A DNA stretch of 64,000 nucleotides from Candidatus Zixiibacteriota bacterium. Lineage in GTDB: Bacteria; Zixibacteria; MSB-5A5; SM1-73. Positions 13,774 to 23,264 of this stretch are shown here, piece by piece. The stretch is from contig JBAVQU010000021.1 in assembly GCA_049694315.1 (NCBI GenBank), positions 20,372 through 84,371 of the forward strand. Reading direction: 5' to 3'. Under the pieces are notes generated by a model. The model was not told the DNA's origin. It made no database searches and saw nothing but the letters and a program-made list of their open reading frames with translations. Made by a program: the position numbers and the translations under genes. Numbering within the stretch: position 1 is the stretch's first letter; each line of letters begins with the position of its first letter.

Positions 13774-15789
13774 ATGAACGAACGGAACCGCGCAATTCTG
13801 AATGCAGTTGCTCCTCCAAGGATTATCCGGTTCTTCCTGGCCATATTCCTTATCTCCGTCTTAGTCCTGACTCTGCTCCGGGTTGGATTTCTTTTGAGAC
13901 ACTTCAAGCTTGCTGCCGGCATACCGTTTTCCACACTTCTTCATTCTTTCGTCATCGGGGCAAGATTCGATGTGGTGGTTCTAAGCTACGGCCTCATCCC
14001 GCTCTTCCTTCTGAGCTATGTACCCTTGATCGGCATGGATCGTCTCAAGGCGACGCGGGTGATAATTGTGACTGTTTTTCTGGCGACCATGGGTCTTGTT
14101 TTCCTCTTGAGCTTTGTGGACATCGAGTTCTTCAGCGAATTCGGCACCCGGCTGAGCGGCTTGGTATGGGAATATCTGGATCATGCGGATATGATTTGGT
14201 ATTCCGTATTGTCGGGCTACCCGGTGCTTCCCTATTTTCTGCTGTGGGGAGCCATGACTTTTGCTTTTGCCCTCGCGGTGACAAGAATTAGCCGAGCCAT
14301 ATTCCGCGAGAGGCGAAGAGAGGGGATTTGGGTTCGCTTTTCCTACTTTGCACTGTGCTCCGGACTTCTCGTCCTGGGGGCGCGCGGGCGTTGGCAGCTG
14401 GCCCCCATTGACTGGGGCACGGCCTATTTCAGTCCGTACGGCTTTGCCGACCAACTGGCATTGAACGGGGTCTATACTCTCGGCAAATCATATTGGGATG
14501 ATAGTCAACACGAGAGTGGCGAAATCCTAAGGAGGTACCATTACTTCCCTTCATCCCAGGCTCTGTCCACCGTTCAGAGGCTGCTGGCTAACCCCAAGGA
14601 GCAACTTTCCGATTCGGCCCATTCACTGGCCCGCTGGTACTACCCCGGCACGAGCAACAGCAAGATCAGAGACTACAACGTGGTGATAATTCAATTGGAA
14701 AGCTGGCTCGCCCGTTACGTGGGGGCGCTGGGAGGAAAACCAGATGCGACCCCCAATTTCGACAGCCTGTCTGGAAAAGGCGTTCTGTTGGAGCACTGTT
14801 ATGCCACAGGCACGCGCACCAATCGGGGGATAGTCTCAAACCTATGCGCATTCCCTTCGCAAACCGGACACTCCATCATGAAACGATACTGCGTCAACCG
14901 ACCATTCGACTCCATCGCCGAGATCTTGAGGAAAAGAGGCTACCCGAATATTGTGGTGTACGGCGGCGACCTGCAATTCGACAACATGGAAGGCTTTTTA
15001 AGAAACCAGGGATTCGATACCTTCATCGGACAAGAGGATTTTCCCCCTGGTTCCAAACTAGGCAAGTGGGGAGTGCCCGATCATTTGATGTTTGAGCGGG
15101 CCAATGAAGAATTTGCAAAATTCGGAGACAAACCGTTCTTGGGAGTCATCGTCACAGTGAGTAATCATGAGCCTTACCTTCTGCCCTCTCCCCGTTTTGA
15201 GATCTTTCCTAAAGACGTTCCTCAGTCAGAATTCCTGAACACTTTTTACTATTCTGATTGGGCACTGGGCGAGTTCTTTCGCGAAGCAGAAAAAGAGCCC
15301 TATTTCAAAAACACCATTTTCGTCCTGGTGGCGGATCATGGAAAATTCATGGAATCCCAAATCGAGCTTCCCGTAGATAGATTTCATATCGCCTGTCTGA
15401 TATACGCACCATACATTCTCGGTGATTCCCCCCGCAGGATTTCGACTGTGGCCAGCCAGACTGATCTTATTCCCACCATTCTGGGCATTTTGGGGAGACC
15501 GGCCTTTCACCAATCCTGGGGGCGGGACCTGCTGTCACTTTCCTCGGAAGACAAGGGTTTTGCCATGATGATCGACGGGAACCTGGTAGGGTGGATGGAA
15601 GGACCTTACTTTTTGGTTGAACGAACCGGCGTAAGCTCTTCACTCTACAACATTTCCGATGATCCTCTTCAAAAACACGACTTATTCTTGGAGTTGCCCG
15701 AAGTTTCCGAAGGTCTTCAAGCCAAGGAACGCTCATTTCTACAGCTGAGCACTGAAGCAGCATCAGGACAAAAAGCCCCTGCCCCTTGA
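13774..15789 (+). CDS. LTA-synthase family (sulfatase-like) membrane hydrolase/transferase
   Basis: The 671-aa protein has 5 N-terminal TM helices and an extracytoplasmic alkaline-phosphatase/sulfatase-fold domain (NVVIIQLESW...VSNHEPY...VLVADHG). Confidence 0.65.
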   Translation: MNERNRAILNAVAPPRIIRFFLAIFLISVLVLTLLRVGFLLRHFKLAAGIPFSTLLHSFVIGARFDVVVLSYGLIPLFLLSYVPLIGMDRLKATRVIIVTVFLATMGLVFLLSFVDIEFFSEFGTRLSGLVWEYLDHADMIWYSVLSGYPVLPYFLLWGAMTFAFALAVTRISRAIFRERRREGIWVRFSYFALCSGLLVLGARGRWQLAPIDWGTAYFSPYGFADQLALNGVYTLGKSYWDDSQHESGEILRRYHYFPSSQALSTVQRLLANPKEQLSDSAHSLARWYYPGTSNSKIRDYNVVIIQLESWLARYVGALGGKPDATPNFDSLSGKGVLLEHCYATGTRTNRGIVSNLCAFPSQTGHSIMKRYCVNRPFDSIAEILRKRGYPNIVVYGGDLQFDNMEGFLRNQGFDTFIGQEDFPPGSKLGKWGVPDHLMFERANEEFAKFGDKPFLGVIVTVSNHEPYLLPSPRFEIFPKDVPQSEFLNTFYYSDWALGEFFREAEKEPYFKNTIFVLVADHGKFMESQIELPVDRFHIACLIYAPYILGDSPRRISTVASQTDLIPTILGILGRPAFHQSWGRDLLSLSSEDKGFAMMIDGNLVGWMEGPYFLVERTGVSSSLYNISDDPLQKHDLFLELPEVSEGLQAKERSFLQLSTEAASGQKAPAP

Positions 15790-16230
15790 TTTAATTTCCG
15801 CTCGGAGTGCGGACCCCTGCCGTCTACCAAAACGGATGGGCCAAACCCCTAAACCCCACCCCACAGAGGTTTAATGCGCCGTATTCACTCTGGAGTGGAA
15901 ACCTGAATGAATTCCCAACGGACCCCGGTTGAATTGCCAGTTTGTGTGATCATATGGTGTGGGTCTGTTTTCCGATCAAGCCGCAAGTGAAAACGCGTAC
16001 CTTCCGCTATGCAGAAAAGTGTTGTGATACCGAGCCGGGTGACTTATCTTGAGCTCGTGGCACTGATCTGGCACTCTATCCATGACTTCAAGTTGTTGTA
16101 AATTTGAATGGATAAGTGAAATTCAGAGTTTCTGTCGCATTTCCCATTGCCGGCTTGTGTACGATCATTTATCTGTGAGTCGGTCGACGTTCTTCCTGAA
16201 GAGGAATTCGGGCAACAAGCAACCAAGAAG

Positions 16231-17403
16231 ATGAAGATCATAATTGCTACAGACAATTATTACCCCCACATTAACGGCGCTTCTCTCTTCGCGCAAAGAC
16301 TCGCCTTCCATCTCAAAAAACAAGGCCACTCAGTCTTAGTCATCGCCCCGTCGCTTACCACTCATTCCGAATTCTCTACTACCAACGGAATCCGCATATT
16401 CGGAATTCGCTCGGTCCCAATACTTATGTACCGGGGATTTCGTGTCTCCCTCCCTTTCTTCATGAAGAAACGGATGGAAGAGATCATACAGGAATTTGAT
16501 CCCGATATCATACATTTCCAAGGTCACTTCTATATTTCCAAAGCCGTTCTTTCGATTGCCCAGAAATTAAAGATACCTACATTAGGAACGAATCACTTCA
16601 TGCCCGAAAACGCCATTCATTATCTTCATCTTCCCAAGTTTGCAGAGAATCCGATTAAGAGATGGGCTTGGAAACAATTTCACTCAGCCTTCGAAAGAAT
16701 GGATATTGTCACTTGTCCAACAGAGACTGCGGTTCAAGTCGTTCGGAGTAACCACCTCAGAAAAAACGCCATGGTTGTGTCTAACGGTGTGGATTTATCA
16801 GAGTTCCATGCCGGTAATGACGGGACATATCTTAAGGAAAAATATAAGCTGCCGGATGAACCCATACTCTTATATGTGGGAAGGCTGGACAAGGAAAAGA
16901 ATATCGATATGATTCTCCGGGCCTTAGCTCTGGTGACAAAGAGAATCAATGTCCACTTTGTAGTGGCGGGTGACGGAGAAGAAAAAGCTGAGCTTAGGAA
17001 CTCGACGAAAGATCTTAATCTTGAAAAGCTCGTTACCTTCACCGGATACGTGTTAGATGAGGATTTACGGAACATATATCGGATTGCCGACTGCTTTGTT
17101 ATTGCCGGAGCCGCTGAATTGCAGAGTATCGTTACCATGGAGGCGATGGCTTCGGGATTGCCGGTGATTGCCCTGAATGCATTGGCTCTGCCTGAACTGG
17201 TTAAGCCCGGGGTAAATGGGTATCTGTTTGAATTCAACGACATAAATGGCTTGGCGCAGGATATCATGAGGATCTTTTCGGATGATTCCCTCCGAAAAAA
17301 GATGGCTGCCGAAAGCTTGGAGCTTATCAAAGACCACCGCATCGAAAATACTGTCCATAAGTTTGAGTCACTCTACCAGTCGCTGCTTAAAAAGAATAAA
17401 TAG
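16231..17403 (+). CDS. Glycosyltransferase family 4 protein
   Basis: Reads MKIIIATDNYYPHINGASLFAQRLAFHLKKQGHSV and carries the GT4 motif EAMASGLPVIALNALALPELVKPGVNGYLF. Confidence 0.75.
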   Translation: MKIIIATDNYYPHINGASLFAQRLAFHLKKQGHSVLVIAPSLTTHSEFSTTNGIRIFGIRSVPILMYRGFRVSLPFFMKKRMEEIIQEFDPDIIHFQGHFYISKAVLSIAQKLKIPTLGTNHFMPENAIHYLHLPKFAENPIKRWAWKQFHSAFERMDIVTCPTETAVQVVRSNHLRKNAMVVSNGVDLSEFHAGNDGTYLKEKYKLPDEPILLYVGRLDKEKNIDMILRALALVTKRINVHFVVAGDGEEKAELRNSTKDLNLEKLVTFTGYVLDEDLRNIYRIADCFVIAGAAELQSIVTMEAMASGLPVIALNALALPELVKPGVNGYLFEFNDINGLAQDIMRIFSDDSLRKKMAAESLELIKDHRIENTVHKFESLYQSLLKKNK

Positions 17404-17500
17404 AGAATGATAAGCTCAATGAGCATGAGGTAAAAGACTGGGCTGGTGATTTACCAAAGGACATGGTTGACCTACGAATTACTAGCATGATGTCAGATTC

Positions 17501-17690
17501 AAATCCCCCTTAATCCCCCTTTGCTAAAGGGGGATTTCTACTCAGGCTGATTGTCGGGCAGCTTGCCAAATGGGTCGCAACCGGAATTTACAAATCTTCG
17601 TGCGGGGCTGGGAGCCCCGCCTACGAGCTTGCTGGACTTGCTGGGCTGGCTGGGCTTGCGGATAGCTGTTTTTCATTTTTCCAGTCGTCC
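17501..17690 (+). repeat. GC-rich palindromic repeat element, copy A. The palindrome (AAATCCCCCTT...AAGGGGGATTT) is followed by GCTGATTGTCGGGCAGC and GGGTCGCAACC.
   Basis: It shares the palindrome, the GCTGATTGTCGGGCAGCT segment and the G(G/A)TCGCAACC(G/A)GA.TTACAAA segment with copy B at 18166-18352. It also contains a perfect hairpin GCGGGGC-TGGGA-GCCCCGC. Confidence 0.5.
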
Positions 17691-17709
17691 TGCTGCATGA
17701 ACTATAACA

Positions 17710-17925
17710 TTCAAACCAAAGGACATAGCGAACTCCCGATACTGATGTTACTGACATTTCTGGCGTTACTGGCGGTTGTTTTAATTTTTTTCCATTCCTA
17801 CTGAAGTATGAGCTTTGCTGTTCATACAAAAGGACATAGCGGATCTGCGATACCGGTGTTTCTGGCGCATCTGGTGCTTCTGGTGTTTGTTTTTATTTTT
17901 TTTCACTTTCATCGCAAGTGATTGA
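17710..17925 (+). repeat. Two tandem ~100-bp units at ~75% identity. Each begins AAAGGACATAGCG and encodes a ~20-aa hydrophobic peptide (17745..17804 and 17856..17921).
   Basis: Unit 1 encodes MLLTFLALLAVVLIFFHSY and unit 2 encodes (V)FLAHLVLLVFVFIFFHFHRK. The units align along their whole length. Confidence 0.5.
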
Positions 17926-17956
17926 AGTTTAATACATTAGATATTGTGTCGGGTGA

Positions 17957-18021
17957 ATTCAAAGTTCAAGGTTCAAGGCTCAAAGTTCAAGGTTCAAAAT
18001 TCCAATTCAAAATTCAAAGTT
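17957..18021 (+). repeat. Tandem heptamer array of (RRTTCAA) in about 9 units
   Basis: Reads aattcaa agttcaa ggttcaa ggctcaa agttcaa ggttcaa aattccaattcaa aattcaa. Confidence 0.8.
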
Positions 18022-18165
18022 ACGCATTCCATAAATTCGGTAAGGGTGCATGAACAATATATTCCATCTCCTACAAACAAGCGCGGTATCCGCTTCAACA
18101 TTGAAGCTGTGGCGAATTTGTTTTTTGTGGTAAGAGAGACAACGGGTTAGGTCGTGGGTTTAGAA

Positions 18166-18352
18166 CCCCCTGAATCCCCCTTATCAGGGGGACAACCCCC
18201 TAAATCCCCCTTTGCCAGAGGGGGATTTCAAGTCAAGCTGATTGTCGGGCAGCTGTCCCGCCCTTCGGGTCTGAGCCTTCCTTCGATACTGAGTCTCAGG
18301 ACGAAGTGCAGGGTCGAAGACCAAAAGCGGGATCGCAACCAGACTTACAAAC
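18166..18352 (+). repeat. GC-rich palindromic repeat element, copy B, with internal insertions relative to copy A
   Basis: Contains CCCCCTGAATCCCCCTTATCAGGGGG, then AAATCCCCCTTTGCCAGAGGGGGATTT, then GCTGATTGTCGGGCAGCT, and about 75 bp later GGGATCGCAACCAGACTTACAAAC. Confidence 0.5.
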
Positions 18353-18530
18353 TACAGGTTAGGTTGTTGTCGGACAGATAAAACGCCCGACACCCTTCGA
18401 CTATGCTCAGGGTAAACGAAGGTCGGGCGCTACGCATTTAAGGACCAAGCTCACGGGGGCAATGGAGTGTAGCAAAATCCCTGTCCGGGTGCATGCACTG
18501 GTCAGACGCTTCATATTCAGTGGGCAGGTC

Positions 18531-18578
18531 AGAAGCCCCGTACTCCTGACTTATCTTGGTGTCAGGCGCGCAGGGCAC
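18531..18578. repeat. Copy 1 of a 45-bp hairpin repeat (GAAGCCCCGTACTCCTGACTTATCTTGGTGTCAGGCGCGCAGGGCA)
   Basis: Near-identical copies lie at 19031..19080 and 19622..19655. It contains the inverted repeat CCTGAC-N10-GTCAGG. Confidence 0.7.
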
Positions 18579-18595
18579 TCGAACTCCGGACTTAT

Positions 18596-18949
18596 CTATT
18601 TGTTACCAGAGGCGTTTGGTCGGTTGCTTTTCTTTTCGATTAAGGCTTGAAGGTCATCTATATCCTTCTGTGCTTTGGAGTTCTCTTCACGAATATCCCA
18701 CAAAGATGGTCGTTTATCTGTTCTGAGGACACGTCGAAACACCTGTTCGGAGAGATAACCCACAATGAAGGTGCCCAGTAGAGTTAGGCCACCAATCTTC
18801 CACCCATTATTCCAGAAGACAAGAACTACCATCACAAGCCAAATCATTCCACATACACCAGCGATACTTACAGACCAATGTCCTCGACCTGCAATTCCAA
18901 ATGTCATTGCTATAATAGCGATGAATGCAAGTAACAAGTAGAGAATCAC
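18596..18949 (-). CDS. Hypothetical small membrane protein of 117 aa with 3 predicted TM helices and a charged C-terminal tail
   Basis: It is an ORF with strongly hydrophobic N-terminal segments, flanked on both sides by the 45-bp hairpin repeat. Confidence 0.4.
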   Translation of the reverse strand: MILYLLLAFIAIIAMTFGIAGRGHWSVSIAGVCGMIWLVMVVLVFWNNGWKIGGLTLLGTFIVGYLSEQVFRRVLRTDKRPSLWDIREENSKAQKDIDDLQALIEKKSNRPNASGNK

Positions 18950-19030
18950 AAGACTTGATCCCTCCTAACTTCTTTTTATATGGTTTCCATATAAACCCAC
19001 TCTAGGGTTTAGCTTCCATTGAGCTTTTAG

Positions 19031-19080
19031 GTCAGGAGCCCCATGCTCCTGACTTATCTTGGTGTCAGGTGCGCAGGGCA
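19031..19080. repeat. Copy 2 of the 45-bp hairpin repeat
   Basis: Reads GTCAGGAGCCCCATGCTCCTGACTTATCTTGGTGTCAGGTGCGCAGGGCA. Confidence 0.7.
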
Positions 19081-19093
19081 GCTCACCTACTGG

Positions 19094-19570
19094 CTATTCC
19101 GACTCCATGTCTTCGATTTGTCTTTTCATCTCTCGCTTTTTGATTTCCAGCAATTTATTGAATTCTGCATTTTTCTCATTTTCGATGGCTTCAATCTTCG
19201 CTCGTAAAGAATACTCGAGACCGATCGCGCCCGGCTGCCTTTTGACTTCCTGCAGCTTTTCTCGCAAATACCTTAACTTTTCTCCATATTTAATATCGTA
19301 TTCAGTGTCCAAAGTCCGGCGGACGCTGTCATCCCAGACTTTTAAGTCTTCTTCGTGTCTTTGTCTAAGGACTTCTTTCTTAGTTTTTGTGTCTCTCCTC
19401 TTGAGGAAGTGTCTGCGCCAATCAAGCACCGTATCGGTGATTAGGGGAACAACAATAGCTCCCACAATAATCACAGATATTATCCTCCAGAATTTTCGTT
19501 TAAGACTCACTTCGAACCCAAGTATTTTTCTCATGGCTGAATTCCAAAAACTTACTCTATCATTTGTCAA
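19094..19570 (-). CDS. Hypothetical membrane-anchored coiled-coil protein of 158 aa
   Basis: It has a single TM helix (IISVIIVGAIVVPLI) followed by a highly charged K/E/R-rich predicted coiled coil. It is flanked by copies 2 and 3 of the hairpin repeat. Confidence 0.4.
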   Translation of the reverse strand: MTNDRVSFWNSAMRKILGFEVSLKRKFWRIISVIIVGAIVVPLITDTVLDWRRHFLKRRDTKTKKEVLRQRHEEDLKVWDDSVRRTLDTEYDIKYGEKLRYLREKLQEVKRQPGAIGLEYSLRAKIEAIENEKNAEFNKLLEIKKREMKRQIEDMESE

Positions 19571-19621
19571 CGCTTTTATTTAGTTATCAACTTTTTTTGA
19601 CGACCAAAAGAGCGTGAAGCC

Positions 19622-19655
19622 CAGAAGCCCCGTACTCCCAACTTATCTTGGTGTC
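19622..19655. repeat. Copy 3 of the 45-bp hairpin repeat, truncated or degenerate
   Basis: Reads CAGAAGCCCCGTACTCCCAACTTATCTTGGTGTC. Confidence 0.6.
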
Positions 19656-19950
19656 TTAAGTATGTAACTCAATCAATGAATCTATAGTTAACAGTTTTCT
19701 ATGTCAAGTTGTTTTTGTCTGGTGCACTGCGGATTCATCCTGTCCGCCAGAGGCCAGCGTCCGCTCGCACGTAAGGGCGTGTCTGTCTCAAATAGAACGT
19801 TGCATTGTTTTAAGTTGCGGGCTTAACGTTCGCGTTCAGAGACCGGGCAATCGGGTTGAAACTGAACAAAACCCAACGTGAAGCACATTCCAATGACCGG
19901 TCCACTGAAACGCGTTGTTATCTACCCGGGAAAGAAGATCCATAAGCAGC

Positions 19951-20382
19951 CTAGAAGACAAATGGCACCATGCGTTTGGTCGCGGCTGCATAAGCCTTGT
20001 ACCCGGGATAGCGCGCGCGGAGAAGCTTCTCCTCGGCGAACATGCGGGCAACAGCGCCGATGAGAACAAGGATCACCAGCAGCGCCGCGAATGAGGGGTG
20101 AGCCAGAGCACCAGCGCAGGTGAAAAGGCAGACAGCCGTATAGATCGGGTGCCGGATGTAGCGATAAGGACCGTTGGTGATAAGTGCCCCTTCGGTTGGA
20201 GCTGCTGTAGCATGGAAGCTGCGGTGACCCAAAGTGATGCGCGCCCATACCATCAGTACAACCGCAGCAGTCTGCACCGTGATGACCAACGGGTTAAATG
20301 AAAAGAGCGACCTGGTGACAATAAGGCCAAGCAATCCAGCGACCATCAGTACAAAACCGAAAACGGATAGAAGTCCCAGCAT
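19951..20382 (-). CDS. Methyltransferase of the isoprenylcysteine carboxyl methyltransferase / phospholipid methyltransferase family; a small membrane protein
   Basis: Has the C-terminal motif GPYRYIRHPIY...AEEKLLRARYPGYKAY and 4 TM helices, in 143 aa. Confidence 0.65.
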   Translation of the reverse strand: MLGLLSVFGFVLMVAGLLGLIVTRSLFSFNPLVITVQTAAVVLMVWARITLGHRSFHATAAPTEGALITNGPYRYIRHPIYTAVCLFTCAGALAHPSFAALLVILVLIGAVARMFAEEKLLRARYPGYKAYAAATKRMVPFVF

Positions 20383-20430
20383 GTGTGTTCACCTAAGCGT
20401 TGATCTTGCAGGTGGCTAACGGACTGCGGT

Positions 20431-20739
20431 TCAGCGGCGGTGCGCCAGCGTCGTCCGCTGCAACGATTTGTTAGGCTTTCTCGCCTTTGTTCTCTGCTTT
20501 TTGGGCAGCAGTGGAATTAAACAACGCAAAGCCCGATTCACAGATTCCGAGTCTGGGAAATACGCTCGAATATCCGGTTCCAGGACAACTGCACCTTTTT
20601 TTGGCATCACGTCCTTAACAACAGTTGTACCATCCACCTTATGAATAGCGATGGTATACCCGGCTTGCATGGCTTTGTGGTGCTTGCCACGCACTCCACC
20701 CCTAAAATTATATTCCGTACGCATATCGTTGTCCTCCAC
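20431..20739 (-). CDS. brnA: BrnA-family antitoxin
   Basis: Has the C-terminal BrnA motif VLEPDIRAYFPDSESVNRALRCLI. It lies immediately downstream of a BrnT-like toxin gene. Confidence 0.55.
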   Translation of the reverse strand: MEDNDMRTEYNFRGGVRGKHHKAMQAGYTIAIHKVDGTTVVKDVMPKKGAVVLEPDIRAYFPDSESVNRALRCLIPLLPKKQRTKARKPNKSLQRTTLAHRR

Positions 20740-20749
20740 CTATACTATT

Positions 20750-21037
20750 TTAGTCACTGCCTTCTTCATAAAGTTTCCGCTCCGATGACGTTGCCTTACG
20801 ACTACTGATAATACGTATGTTGGAGCCTCGTTCGGTATAAACCACTACCAGTATGTGACCCTTATCAGAACTGCCAATGTCAATATACCGCTGCTCCTCC
20901 ACTGAATGGCCTGGATCAGGCATCGTAATTGAAAAGGGATCAACGAAAACCGTTGTGGCTTCATCAAAACTGACTTGGTGCTTTTTGAGATTCGCTTTGG
21001 CTTTTTCTTCATCCCACTCAAAGCTCAGTTTCATCAT
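20750..21037 (-). CDS. brnT: BrnT-family (DUF497) ribonuclease toxin
   Basis: Reads MKLSFEWDEEKAKANLKKHQVSFDEATTVFVDP...ILVVVYTERGSNIRIISSRKAT, which matches the BrnT signature. Confidence 0.65.
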   Translation of the reverse strand: MMKLSFEWDEEKAKANLKKHQVSFDEATTVFVDPFSITMPDPGHSVEEQRYIDIGSSDKGHILVVVYTERGSNIRIISSRKATSSERKLYEEGSD

Positions 21038-21288
21038 GGCTCCTTTGAACCCTAGCGTGTCGTTTAAGCATAACCGGCCGCGGTTCACCCGCCGCGCGGG
21101 TGCGGGATAGAGCTTCTGCTACGAGACCAACTACAAGCGCGTGTAGCCGCCGATTCGCGCGCGCCATAGCGCAGTCGGGTGCAAGCGCTGGTTAGGTGGC
21201 CCGCTTGGGCTTTACGTATGCCCGCCAGGTCCCCTTGACCTGGTGGGGAGCTCCTATCAGGTCGGGGACCTCAAGAGGTACTATTTTC

Positions 21289-22029
21289 TCATAATATCTT
21301 CCATCTCTTGATCTGTTCCATTGCTCTGTAGTCGGTCATATCGAGATGGAGAGGAGTGATGGAGACGTAGCCTTTCTGGATGGCGGCGTAATCGGTATCG
21401 TCCTCTTTTTCCCAGATAGAGGTCTGTTCTCCGATCCAATAATATTCCCCAACGCGCTGAGTAATTTTATCGATCACCACGTCGTTATGCACCCTTTTCC
21501 CCAAACGTGTGATTTTATACTTCTTCATGGCTGGCCTTTTGTCAGGAACATTCACGTTCAAGAGGCTATCCTTGGGCAGCCCGTTTTTCAGGACGAAGGA
21601 TGTTAGCTTTCTTACAAATTCGGCCGCAGACTTAAAATGCTTGGCACTGTAATTAACGTTGGAGACCGCGATAGAGGGAATGCCCAGGATCGTCCCCTCC
21701 ATGGCTGCGGCCACCGTTCCTGAGTAGGAAACGTCGTTTCCCAGATTGGGGCCGTGATTGATCCCGGAGACAAGTATGTCGGGCCTTTTTTTCAGGATGG
21801 CGCGAACTGCCAGCATCACTGCGTCCGTGGGTGTACCGCTCACGCTGTAAGATCTGTCGCCGATCTGGTTTGTGCGTATAGGATACTCCAAAGTCAGCGA
21901 ATGGCTGGTGGCGCTCTGTTCTCTATCCGGCGCCACTACCCATACCTGGCCGATTTTGGAGATTTCCTTCCTTAGGGTTACCAAACCTTCTGCATTTATG
22001 CCGTCGTCATTGGTGAGTAAGATTAACAA
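21289..22029 (-). CDS. surE: 5'/3'-nucleotidase SurE
   Basis: Reads MLILLTNDDGINAEGLVTLRKEISKIGQVWVVAPDREQSATSHSLT, the canonical SurE N-terminus. Confidence 0.85.
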   Translation of the reverse strand: MLILLTNDDGINAEGLVTLRKEISKIGQVWVVAPDREQSATSHSLTLEYPIRTNQIGDRSYSVSGTPTDAVMLAVRAILKKRPDILVSGINHGPNLGNDVSYSGTVAAAMEGTILGIPSIAVSNVNYSAKHFKSAAEFVRKLTSFVLKNGLPKDSLLNVNVPDKRPAMKKYKITRLGKRVHNDVVIDKITQRVGEYYWIGEQTSIWEKEDDTDYAAIQKGYVSITPLHLDMTDYRAMEQIKRWKIL

Positions 22030-22035
22030 TTTGTC

Positions 22036-22092
22036 TCCTTTAACCTCTCCCCTATTGCCCCGGTCTCCATTTCATGGAGAGGGGGAGATTAG
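22036..22092. repeat. Nested palindromic element of about 50 bp (CTCCCCT...CTCCATTTCATGGAG...AGGGGGAG); a second copy is at 43095-43150
   Basis: Reads aacctctcccctattgccccggtctccatttcatggagagggggagatt. It shares the GGAGAGGGGGAG core and the palindrome architecture with the copy at 43095. Confidence 0.55.
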
Positions 22093-22101
22093 GGGGTGAA
22101 A

Positions 22102-22773
22102 TCACCACCACAGGCTTCTCCACATCAGTCTGAGGAATCTACCCGTGTCAGTTAGGGGACGAATGAAGCTTCTCCCCCCTGCATAGATGGTGTCGATGGC
22201 AACTTGATTTATCCGGAATCCCTTTCGGCTGGCTTTGACCAAGATTTCCGATTCTAAATCGTACTTCTTGGACTCCAATTTGACGCTCCTTATGACCTCA
22301 ATCGGGATCAGCCTGTAGCCGGACTGGCTATCTCTGATGGATTGACCCGACAAAATCGATAGAACAGTCGAGGTCAACTTGTTGCTCAGCCACCGGGACA
22401 AAGGCATGGTCTTCAAATCCATCCTTCTGGTGCCGATCAGAATAGCCGGCAAAACGCCTCTTTTGCGCATAAAATCAGGGAGAGAGCGCGGATCGTGTTG
22501 TAGATCGGCATCCATGGTAATCACAGCATCATAGTTGTTTTCCACCGCATATCTGAATCCGGTTTTCAACGCTTCCCCCTTACCCTGGTTGCGGTCGTGC
22601 TTCAGGACCACCACACCGGCCTTTTGAGCGATCTGAGAGGTCTGATCACCTGACCCATCATCCACCACCACCATAACATCTCTGTCTATGAATTTCGAGG
22701 TCTTCTCTATTAGCTCCAGGATGGTCGAGGCGGCATTGTATGCGGGGATAAGTACCAGGAACCCTTTGGTCAT
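22102..22773 (-). CDS. Glycosyltransferase family 2 protein, a polyprenyl-phosphate sugar transferase of the DPM1/ArnC type
   Basis: Reads LVLIPAYNAASTILELIE...VVVDDGSGDQTSQIA...DAVITMDADLQHDP. Confidence 0.7.
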   Translation of the reverse strand: MTKGFLVLIPAYNAASTILELIEKTSKFIDRDVMVVVDDGSGDQTSQIAQKAGVVVLKHDRNQGKGEALKTGFRYAVENNYDAVITMDADLQHDPRSLPDFMRKRGVLPAILIGTRRMDLKTMPLSRWLSNKLTSTVLSILSGQSIRDSQSGYRLIPIEVIRSVKLESKKYDLESEILVKASRKGFRINQVAIDTIYAGGRSFIRPLTDTGRFLRLMWRSLWW

Positions 22774-22803
22774 GAACGATGGAATATGGATTCTTAACTA
22801 AAA

Positions 22804-22879
22804 ATCGGGGCGAGCCGATTTGAACGGCCGACCCCTTGCACCCCAAGCAAGTGCGCTAACCAGTCTGCGCTACGCCCCG
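22804..22879 (-). tRNA. tRNA-Pro (anticodon GGG)
   Basis: The minus-strand sequence is CGGGGCG TA GCGC AGACTGGTTA GCGC A CTTGC TTGGGGT GCAAG GGGTC GGCCG TTCAAAT CGGCT CGCCCCG A. It folds as a cloverleaf with a 7-bp acceptor stem, a D arm, anticodon loop UUGGGGU and a TPsiC arm; CCA is not encoded. Confidence 0.8.
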
Positions 22880-22916
22880 ATTTAGTTAGAACAGTATAAT
22901 CTGCCTCGATGATAAG

Positions 22917-23264
22917 TCAAGACAGAATCTCTAAAATCTCAGAAAGCTCCCTCTTGATTTCCTCCAGAAGACCCTGAAGCTTCATCTTCTCCACCACCAC
23001 CGGACCCAATTCGTCACGCCGCAGCTCCTTCAGTCTGGACTTGGCTCCCTCGATGGTATATCCTTCTTCGTACAGGAGGTGTTTGATCTGGCTGATCAGA
23101 TCGATGTCCTTCTGCTGATAAGACCGATTGCCTGCCCGGTTCTTTTTGGGTCGGAGCAGACCAAACTCTTTTTCCCAGAATCTCAATACGTAAGGTTTGA
23201 TCCCGGTTATCTTCTCTACTTCGCCTATCGAATAGTAGAGTTTCTCGCCGACGAAAGTCTCCAA
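22917..23264 (-). CDS. MerR-family transcriptional regulator
   Basis: Has an N-terminal MerR HTH (YSIGEVEKITGIKPYVLRFWEKEFGLLRPKKNRAGNRSYQQKDIDL) and a C-terminal coiled coil. Confidence 0.7.
   Translation of the reverse strand: METFVGEKLYYSIGEVEKITGIKPYVLRFWEKEFGLLRPKKNRAGNRSYQQKDIDLISQIKHLLYEEGYTIEGAKSRLKELRRDELGPVVVEKMKLQGLLEEIKRELSEILEILS

Follow-up and report, generated by a model that had tools for sequence, protein, structure and literature searches.

The described systems closest to the locus reported here are clusters of attC sites without an integron integrase (CALINs) and the same-orientation ("reverse") integrons of Treponema, Chlorobi and Ignavibacteriae. The outer boxes of an attC site carry AAC (R'') and GTT (R') triplets, and the folded site presents R and L boxes with a protruding base (PMC3607928). 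T. phagedenis has lost the integrase and retained the sites (PMC3607928), and CALINs are common (PMC9024848). With these systems we compare a small array in a 64,000-nt stretch of Candidatus Zixiibacteriota contig JBAVQU010000021.1 (assembly GCA_049694315.1, positions 20,372 to 84,371; hereafter the window), in which a repeat unit of ~74 nt, composed of two hairpins (P2 and P1) around a 10-nt spacer (O), follows two small open reading frames (ORFs). In both cases small tandem ORFs lie on one strand and each is followed by an imperfect palindrome of ~60-75 nt, the sites are similar within an array and lineage, and close strains differ in their cassettes. Likewise, the cargo is rich in toxins, acetyltransferases and defence genes, and related arrays start with the 3' end of an integron-type integrase gene and an attI-like module ending in GTT. 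We regard the locus as the decayed remains of a cassette array that has no integrase and is related to integron platforms, with P2-O-P1 as its present or former boundary recombination site. We assign this reading a probability of roughly 45%.

Other described elements share part of this picture. Repetitive extragenic palindromic (REP) sequences, bacterial interspersed mosaic elements (BIMEs) and REP doublets forming hairpins (REPINs), with their REP-associated tyrosine transposases (RAYTs), also combine a GTAG head with a short hairpin, and two inverted copies around a short spacer are able to form one long hairpin. They too lie just past genes, and their copies look like decaying descendants of a master sequence. 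Miniature inverted-repeat transposable elements (MITEs) and mobile insertion cassettes (MICs), such as Correia elements and MIC231, are short, have terminal inverted repeats and gene-end positions and can supply stop codons; MICs in addition hold passenger genes between ends resembling those of insertion sequences (IS). The pdif (XerC/XerD) modules of Acinetobacter plasmids are small gene modules with short Xer-family sites that are shuffled without a linked recombinase gene. However, pdif sites are 28 bp long (11-6-11), alternate in orientation and are plasmid-borne, whereas the units described here are ~74-nt double hairpins in one orientation on the chromosome, with no plasmid match.

Results

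A repeat search of the window returned one repeat family with three direct copies on the plus strand, at 18526-18577 (reference), 19029-19080 (92% identity) and 19618-19669 (69%, the match being limited to the first ~38 nt), and no further copies. The 15-mer ACTTATCTTGGTGTC occurs three times exactly against 0.12 expected in 64 kb, and a 24-mer from the repeat core twice against 0 expected. A sequence-only reading of this DNA had described three copies of a 45-bp hairpin repeat delimiting two small membrane-protein ORFs. The family is real and confined to one cluster, and the proposed minus-strand order of repeat, ORF, repeat, ORF, repeat was seen. The true unit, however, measures ~74 nt, and the third copy, which comes first on the minus strand, is merely a half unit joined on its 5' side to a promoter-like module (Y; Table 1). 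The exact 46-mer matched copy 1 only, at up to 3 mismatches. Both ORFs (ORF158 and ORF117) stop 13-18 nt ahead of the conserved core of the next copy. The GC content is 0.41-0.45 across the two cassettes versus ~0.50 in the flanks, and according to Pfam scans of the neighbouring ORFs the genes around the array are housekeeping genes.

Table 1. Coordinates of the array and its surroundings (positions in the window unless a contig is named).
Feature	Position	Strand	Description
ORF117 (WCE90_05520)	18596..18949	-	about three hydrophobic segments (read from sequence), charged C-terminal tail
ORF158 (WCE90_05525)	19094..19570	-	one N-terminal hydrophobic segment; long charged, probably coiled-coil, tail
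Repeat copy 1	18519..18592	-	full-length unit, both outer arms mutated; begins 4 nt past ORF117 stop; fold z -0.55
Repeat copy 2	19022..19095	-	full unit, decayed P2 outer arm; begins right past ORF158 stop; fold z -2.6
Repeat copy 3	19618..19655	-	half unit: spacer ACACCAAGATAA (19655-19644) and decayed P1 (GTTGGGAGTACGGGGCTTCTGGGC); P2 absent
Module Y	19655..19715	-	promoter-like TTGACA-17-TAGATT (19707-19679) reading into array; common to L024, L052, L058, L017, L037, L069
Module X	18964..19018	-	5' leader with palindrome TTTATATGGAAACCATATAAA (18975-18995), end ...AAGAAGTT|AGGAGG
Non-coding module beyond copy 1	18439..18518		86-88% identical to L011, L018, L057, L013
Non-coding mosaic	17495..18238		G-rich hairpin modules, 111-nt tandem repeat, decayed ORF-less class B copy (about 17800-18155)
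BrnT toxin	21088..20750	-	
Partner ORF	20739..20431	-	downstream of BrnT
Membrane methyltransferase	20382..19951	-	PEMT/ICMT-like
Second double-hairpin family	L002 429-493, 4253-4317, 5351-5415; L005 ~200-250; L047; L067		

Read on the coding strand of the ORFs, the unit consists of AGTYCGTAG, hairpin P2 (GTCAGGTGC-CCTGC-GCACCTGAC), spacer O (ACCAAGATAA), hairpin P1 (GTCAGGAGC-ACGGG-GCTCCTGAC) and a terminal CTACAAGCT. In copy 2 the minus strand reads AGCCAGTAG-P2-ACCAAGATAA-P1(GTCAGGAGC ATGGG GCTCCTGAC)-CTAAAAGCT. The inverted repeat CCTGAC-N10-GTCAGG pointed out earlier is present, and it proved to be the inner arms of two hairpins around the 10-nt spacer, that is, a hairpin-hairpin junction. 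The spacer is conserved and asymmetric. Two alternative folds are available, either two 9-bp hairpins or a single long imperfect hairpin with equal 23-nt arms, three symmetrical mismatches and zero bulges. The consensus of 44 units (GTAGGTCAGG...CCTGACCTAC) contains AGTTC and GAACT, in inverse order, as its sole GTT/AAC-like triplets; GTAG (columns 6-9) and its complement CTAC (columns 66-69) are 89-95% conserved.

Among 185,579 species-representative genomes, a strict pattern for the unit matched a single contig in each of three metagenome-assembled genomes (MAGs), from Zixibacteria, Ignavibacteria and Hodarchaeota. A looser, P2-centred pattern matched 75 metagenome contigs, a large part of which come from only a few samples. 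In all, 90 oriented unit instances were available from 78 other loci (75 metagenome contigs and three MAGs, numbered with the prefix L). Because the metagenome loci were picked by a P2-based pattern, sites with P1 alone are under-represented, and the flanks covered on each contig reach no further than about 7 kb. Phage or plasmid origin was ruled out by 0 matches to viral contigs with three patterns and by the lack of any blastn match to plasmids. The Candidatus Hodarchaeota MAG (L003, a 3.1-kb contig) has a near-consensus unit after an 804-codon ORF. Integrons have been reported in Asgard MAGs (PMC9668308), and the unit in this Asgard bin reflects either cross-domain spread or a binning error.

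The units keep a fixed position relative to genes. An ORF of at least 60 codons ends no more than 40 nt before P2 in 41 of the 79 unique instances, often at the unit's own TAG, compared with 15 of 79 on the opposite side. These upstream ORFs (63 to 1218 codons) are on the same strand and mutually unrelated. All those to which a name could be given belong to defence or toxin classes: SIR2_2 (three times), a helicase-PLD protein, ThiF-JAB, a Type ISP restriction enzyme, HerA, N6_N4 methylases (six), GNAT acetyltransferases, DarT, HEPN and a Phd-type antitoxin.

Array content varies between strains. L036, L063 and L078 share a long flank at 91-98% identity, followed by runs of same-strand ORFs with one or two ORFs per unit and non-homologous content. 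L063 and L078 have flanks of 97.8% identity, their intervening content is non-homologous, and L063 holds two units and L078 three over ~2.8 kb. The integron-type order of unidirectional short ORFs, each with a following site, is seen both in the window and in these three loci, and variation of content between strains in the comparison of L063 with L078. Segments comprising a gene, P2 and O are identical in otherwise unrelated contigs (L005/L077, L036/L053, L005/L009), and their homology breaks at ...ACCAAGATA|A, the edge of the spacer. Over all loci, P2-O continues into P1 in 40 cases and into other sequence in 37. The reciprocal arrangement, a promoter followed by O-P1 without P2, characterises copy 3 of the window and also opens the L078 array. 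The stems of the hairpins are retained while their loops range from 5 to ~50 nt.

Where P2-O is not followed by P1, it most often meets a conserved "class B" element of ~1 kb (0.5-1 kb), which seems to close the arrays and begins directly after the spacer (…ACCAAGATAA|AACCCCATTCTGATACCTAACCCGTAGTCTCTCTTACCAC…). It was found in L014, L015, L021, L023, L028, L033, L035, L036, L041, L046, L066, L071 and L005, and its product in these 13 loci is a protein of 176-290 aa whose C-terminus is winged-helix-like, with no Pfam match and one marginal PHROG match (E 0.034). The class B element may be a terminal or anchor element of the arrays.

The connection to integrons comes from the sequence adjoining the units. 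IntI-like C-terminal remnants of 18-57 codons are present in L056, L007, L032, L005, L047 and L002; their motif (...LLE...D) is 64% identical to IntI1 residues 287-330. The remnants, which differ in length, stand directly 3' of a unit or of a related hairpin pair. In L007 the junction lies inside the integrase gene, and the arrangement is likewise in L005, L047 and L002. This arrangement would also be expected if the units were attL/attR scars of mini-elements (each an IntI-like integrase, an attI/promoter module and one cargo gene) that accumulated in tandem at a single chromosomal position and whose integrase genes were afterwards deleted. The recurrence of platform modules after units, with one ORF each, and the inverted boxes around an asymmetric spacer, as is typical of tyrosine-recombinase cores, agree with such scars. 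Against them, no intact or half-length integrase stands beside the unit at about 90 sites, many units are followed by ORFs without any platform module, and the window contains no integrase remnant at all. We consider this origin unlikely.

A second double-hairpin family (Table 1) has the same GTCAGG/CCTGAC boxes with 3-nt loops and a 4-nt spacer (TGTCAGGAGCTACTCCTGACA-GTTG-TGTCAGGTCCTAGACCTGACA). It usually lies after a strong TTGACA-N17-TATAAT promoter, and an integrase 3' remnant comes immediately next.

Modules resembling attI were recognised by comparison with a genuine integron. In L083 the ~165 nt past the integrase stop codon (...CTTATACGGAAAGAAACAGTCTG...TTTATACAGACGGTATAATCATTGTT|) are 73-87% identical to modules in 12 of the unit-bearing loci, among them L036, L066, L029, L058, L063, L056, L061, L013, L009, L005 and L018. 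Homology always stops at GTT, and a different ORF starts 15-30 nt later; in six loci the module lies directly 3' of P1. Module X of the window behaves similarly, since elsewhere its homology ceases at the identical GTT and a different ORF comes next; in L052, L058, L024 and L069 it stands ~100 nt after module Y. L058 (7355-11009) holds both platform types, a Y-X module and a TGTATAAT…CATTGTT module, each joined at GTT to a different ORF and kept apart by units flanking a methylase-containing two-gene block. Consequently, the promoter/attI-like modules are themselves repeated inside arrays.

A search with an IntI C-terminal consensus built from the remnants, intended to find an intact integrase beside a unit-type array, returned canonical-attC integrons instead. 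In these (L079, L082 and L083-86) integrase and cassettes have the same orientation. In L079 intI is frameshifted and about 12 cassettes have attC sites of the form GTCTAAC...GTTCGAC, L082 is from Chlorobiaceae, and the expected GTCTAAC...GTTCGAC pattern was seen at the canonical sites of L079, L082 and L083. Loci tied to matches with IntI fragments are L080 and L082-L086. The best 120 matches of the consensus among 5.8 billion proteins (P0002-P0121) are all stand-alone ORFs of 60-94 aa. In L083-86 an identical 92-aa fragment heads canonical-attC arrays, and the samples diverge past the third cassette. Truncated same-orientation integrons thus appear to be common in metagenomes. A simple attC finder recovered only 1 of the ~12 true sites of L079.

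Could the unit act at the RNA level, as a 3'-untranslated double hairpin that terminates transcription or protects the mRNA and was spread by recombination between related islands? It is located 3' of ORFs on the coding strand, its consensus fold is strong (-23.8 kcal/mol, z -5.8 relative to shuffles), and changes compatible with G-U pairs are common in P1. However, under both the two-hairpin and the long-hairpin model the share of paired cells and the score for covariation match those of shuffled controls, with double changes in only 1-3 cells. Hence the copies differ by random decay from a master sequence, which is expected of recently copied DNA and not of an ancient family of structured RNAs. 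The fold of copy 1 is no better than that of shuffled sequences. Neither hairpin is followed by a U-tract, and a scan for intrinsic terminators gave no site at copies 1 and 2, its sole match being a weak 6-bp stem in copy 3; no T-run follows P1. Rfam covariance models did not match the unit at E up to 1 (positions 15000-23000) nor at gathering thresholds (whole window, tRNAs elsewhere only); to our knowledge, Rfam includes no attC family. Near-identity across phyla and sharp homology breaks are, moreover, properties of mobile DNA. An RNA role is the least likely explanation, and we think it very improbable.

Superficially, the unit recalls the 3' end of RNase P and an ACCA-ended minihelix. ARAGORN found no tRNA or tmRNA near the repeats, the nearest gene being tRNA-Pro at 22804. 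The idea that a tRNA, tmRNA or RNase P gene had its 3' end duplicated as an integration target was rejected, because no Rfam, tRNA or tmRNA call was obtained and the polarity of the partial copy does not fit. Conserved DNA upstream that translates in several frames had raised the idea of a large structured non-coding RNA ending in the repeat. This was ruled out, since that DNA is pieced together from modules shared independently of one another, and a genuine protein of 180-290 aa is encoded by one of them.

The strongest rival to a cassette array is a REPIN/BIME-like palindrome (moved by a RAYT of the Y1 HUH type), an IS200/IS605-type end (palindrome-associated transposable element, PATE) or a MITE palindrome. 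The inverted termini of the unit extend over ~30 nt, and such an element would preferentially land just after stop codons in variable islands and decorate the arrays without assembling them. Each arm has a GTAG head and a 9-bp hairpin, and the arms are inverted, which is reportedly the textbook REP/REPIN layout given by Nunvar in 2010, Bertels and Rainey in 2011 and Ton-Hoang in 2012. The foot of the hairpin is exactly 10 nt from the breakpoint, the same distance as at the right end of IS608. The arms are preceded by GTTC and CTTG, and the palindrome reaches ~17 nt past the inner box of each hairpin, as terminal inverted repeats would. Single-arm copies exist, and the random decay from one master without compensatory changes and the variable points at which the P1 side is joined to its neighbours also suit such an element, as does a homologue of ORF158 in L081 that reads TAG|AAGCTT past the stop codon, as if the unit had been removed.

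Nevertheless, REPs and REPINs occur in tens to hundreds of dispersed copies and are lineage-specific, whereas the units form one small cluster in 64 kb, are restricted to one contig in each matching genome (n=3) and are near-identical across phyla. The repeat is thus not a common genome-wide REP element, which for the sequence-only reading would have refuted the array. No RAYT was found in the window or the related loci, although one elsewhere in the genome is possible. Y1_Tnp was not detected in the related loci by tblastn and phmmer with IS200 TnpA nor by Pfam family counts over 277 ORFs, and neither the window nor 564 kb of related loci contain a Y1/HUH or DDE transposase. With respect to MITEs and MICs, no parental IS and no target-site duplication were detected, and the pentamers flanking the unit (AGTTC and AAGCT) are inverted and not direct; the conserved 10-nt spacer found on either side of the gene units may itself represent a specific target or a duplication. 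In addition, the units share a strict polarity with the ORFs upstream and are confined to strain-variable arrays. In our view, a palindromic parasite of this kind is less probable than a cassette array.

Of the two ORFs, ORF117 shows full identity with WCE90_05520, which belongs to a Candidatus Zixiibacteriota MAG. A search of 1.8 billion representatives gave only 10 relatives, all distant, and its sole Pfam match, below threshold, is CyanoTRADDas_TM, a two-transmembrane domain of conflict systems (E 0.0027). ORF158 probably starts with the ATG at 19534, as judged from the alignment with its single homologue (L081, 54% identical); the MAG annotation of this locus gives a 126-aa product. Gene and promoter are shared with L081 at the DNA level, the promoter-like site ahead of ORF158 being TTGACA...TAGAGT. 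Since relatives are few and the L081 homologue is free of the repeat, the pair is not a conserved operon, which would have spoken against cassettes, and the repeat does not belong to the gene. Both ORFs gave nothing or marginal matches only in PADLOC and PHROG scans, and exact-sequence look-ups of ORF117, ORF158 and P0122 returned no record.

The non-coding DNA around the ORFs (17495-18600, 18964-19018 and 19655-19715) is a patchwork of modules, each 75-97% identical to many related contigs. From the homology of the module beyond copy 1 it follows that some units have a longer conserved extension on the P1 side (…CCCACTGAATATGAAGCGTCTGACCAGTGCATGCACCCGGACAGGGATTTTGCTACACTCCATTGCC…). Within and next to the mosaic, a 59-nt repeat (17505-17563 and 18196-18254, 90% identical) forms the hairpin AAATCCCCCTTTGC.A.AGGGGGATTT followed by GCTGATTGTCGGGCAGCT; this G-rich hairpin module is present in at least 17 related loci. 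The two tandem 111-nt units (17676-17897) are 71% identical and non-coding, with homologous stretches in L066, L011, L006, L060 and L076. The genes for BrnT, its partner and the methyltransferase sit between the array and the housekeeping gene surE. No hairpin sites were found between these three genes or after the PEMT-like gene. Judging from their position, they are possibly older cassettes of the same island.

Discussion

The sequence-only reading had likened the locus to an integron-like or recombination-site-delimited array and had noted that no integrase is present. The resemblance holds in so far as 78 further loci combine the unit with diverse ORFs, arrays vary between strains, gene-plus-repeat segments recur in unrelated contexts, and related loci contain integrase remnants and attI-like modules. 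It requires qualification because the unit is not an attC and the REPIN/MITE explanation is serious. The absence of an integrase extends from the window to 564 kb of related loci, which have 3' remnants only. As CALINs lack IntI by definition, a missing integrase excludes a complete integron only.

Several points weigh against a cassette array bounded by P2-O-P1. The AAC...GTT R boxes in the required order are absent from the unit, which instead has GTCAGG...CCTGAC boxes in the opposite order on its outer arms. The arms are symmetrical, with no extrahelical or bulged bases, and homology breaks mid-unit, at the central spacer, and not near the 3' end of the site as in CALINs. Complementarity between the R'' box and a cassette 5' GTTnnnn was found as a 7-mer in 6 of 17 repeat-type cassettes, which is about the number that chance would give, and these 7-mers did not lie at ORF ends; L079, the positive control, did show the complementarity. 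On the grounds of box sequence and order, missing bulges and failed R''/R' complementarity, a canonical attC is ruled out. Furthermore, the attI-like modules recur within the arrays, which the one-attI model of integrons does not predict, and many cassettes have their own promoter. The shared cassettes have their left boundaries at no fixed point in P1, and P1 joins integron-platform sequence at variable positions, so that these joins look more like insertion or deletion than like clean site-specific exchange. The L081 homologue of ORF158 has no repeat past its stop codon, and the window copies are decayed. Finally, tblastn and phmmer searches of the window with the queries IntI1, XerD and lambda Int, and Pfam scans of the neighbouring ORFs, revealed no tyrosine recombinase, and 564 kb of related loci yielded no recombinase or transposase by tblastn, phmmer and Pfam family counts over 277 ORFs. 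The link to an enzyme is therefore circumstantial. A weak IntI1 match at 27.5 kb of the window is the Der GTPase.

How could the array have been assembled if P2-O-P1 is its boundary site? In this family a variable gene segment, often with its own promoter or leader module, directly precedes P2 and the spacer, and the next piece, either P1 with the following cassette or an array-end element, is joined at the spacer. Inverted boxes around an asymmetric spacer are typical of tyrosine-recombinase core sites. Presumably, the spacer between the inverted CCTGAC and GTCAGG boxes is the past or present crossover region of a site-specific recombinase. The most plausible enzyme would be a tyrosine recombinase of the IntI/Xer type, remnants of whose gene head related arrays; insertion and exchange of circular or tandem units would follow a single orientation. 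The minus strand of the window may then be read as the platform promoter Y, an inserted segment made up of a half site, ORF158 together with its own promoter and a full site, then the platform leader X joined at GTT to ORF117, another full site and array-end debris. The two small membrane proteins would be array cargo. Owing to the mutations in the sites and the lack of an enzyme gene, this array is probably frozen.

A more specific proposal, which we put forward only tentatively, is that P2-spacer-P1 represents an undescribed class of cassette site, a double-hairpin analogue of attC with the crossover in the 10-nt spacer. An IntI-related recombinase in Zixibacteria and Ignavibacteria would use it to shuffle arrays of defence genes on a platform derived from integrons.

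Taken alone, the window is a modest finding, a frozen relic of two genes. Integrons, however, are defined by one type of site (attC) and one enzyme (IntI), and search tools detect only arrays that fit this model. If the unit is a working boundary site, cassette arrays of uncultured sediment phyla are invisible to current integron finders, and integron-type platforms can run on a site that is built differently. Defence genes abound in such arrays, among them SIR2, HerA, restriction-modification and toxin genes. If the unit is instead a palindromic parasite of arrays, it is a REPIN-like element that is unusually confined and has spread across phyla. Under either reading, the unit offers a convenient sequence tag with which to collect variable defence-gene cassettes from metagenomes.

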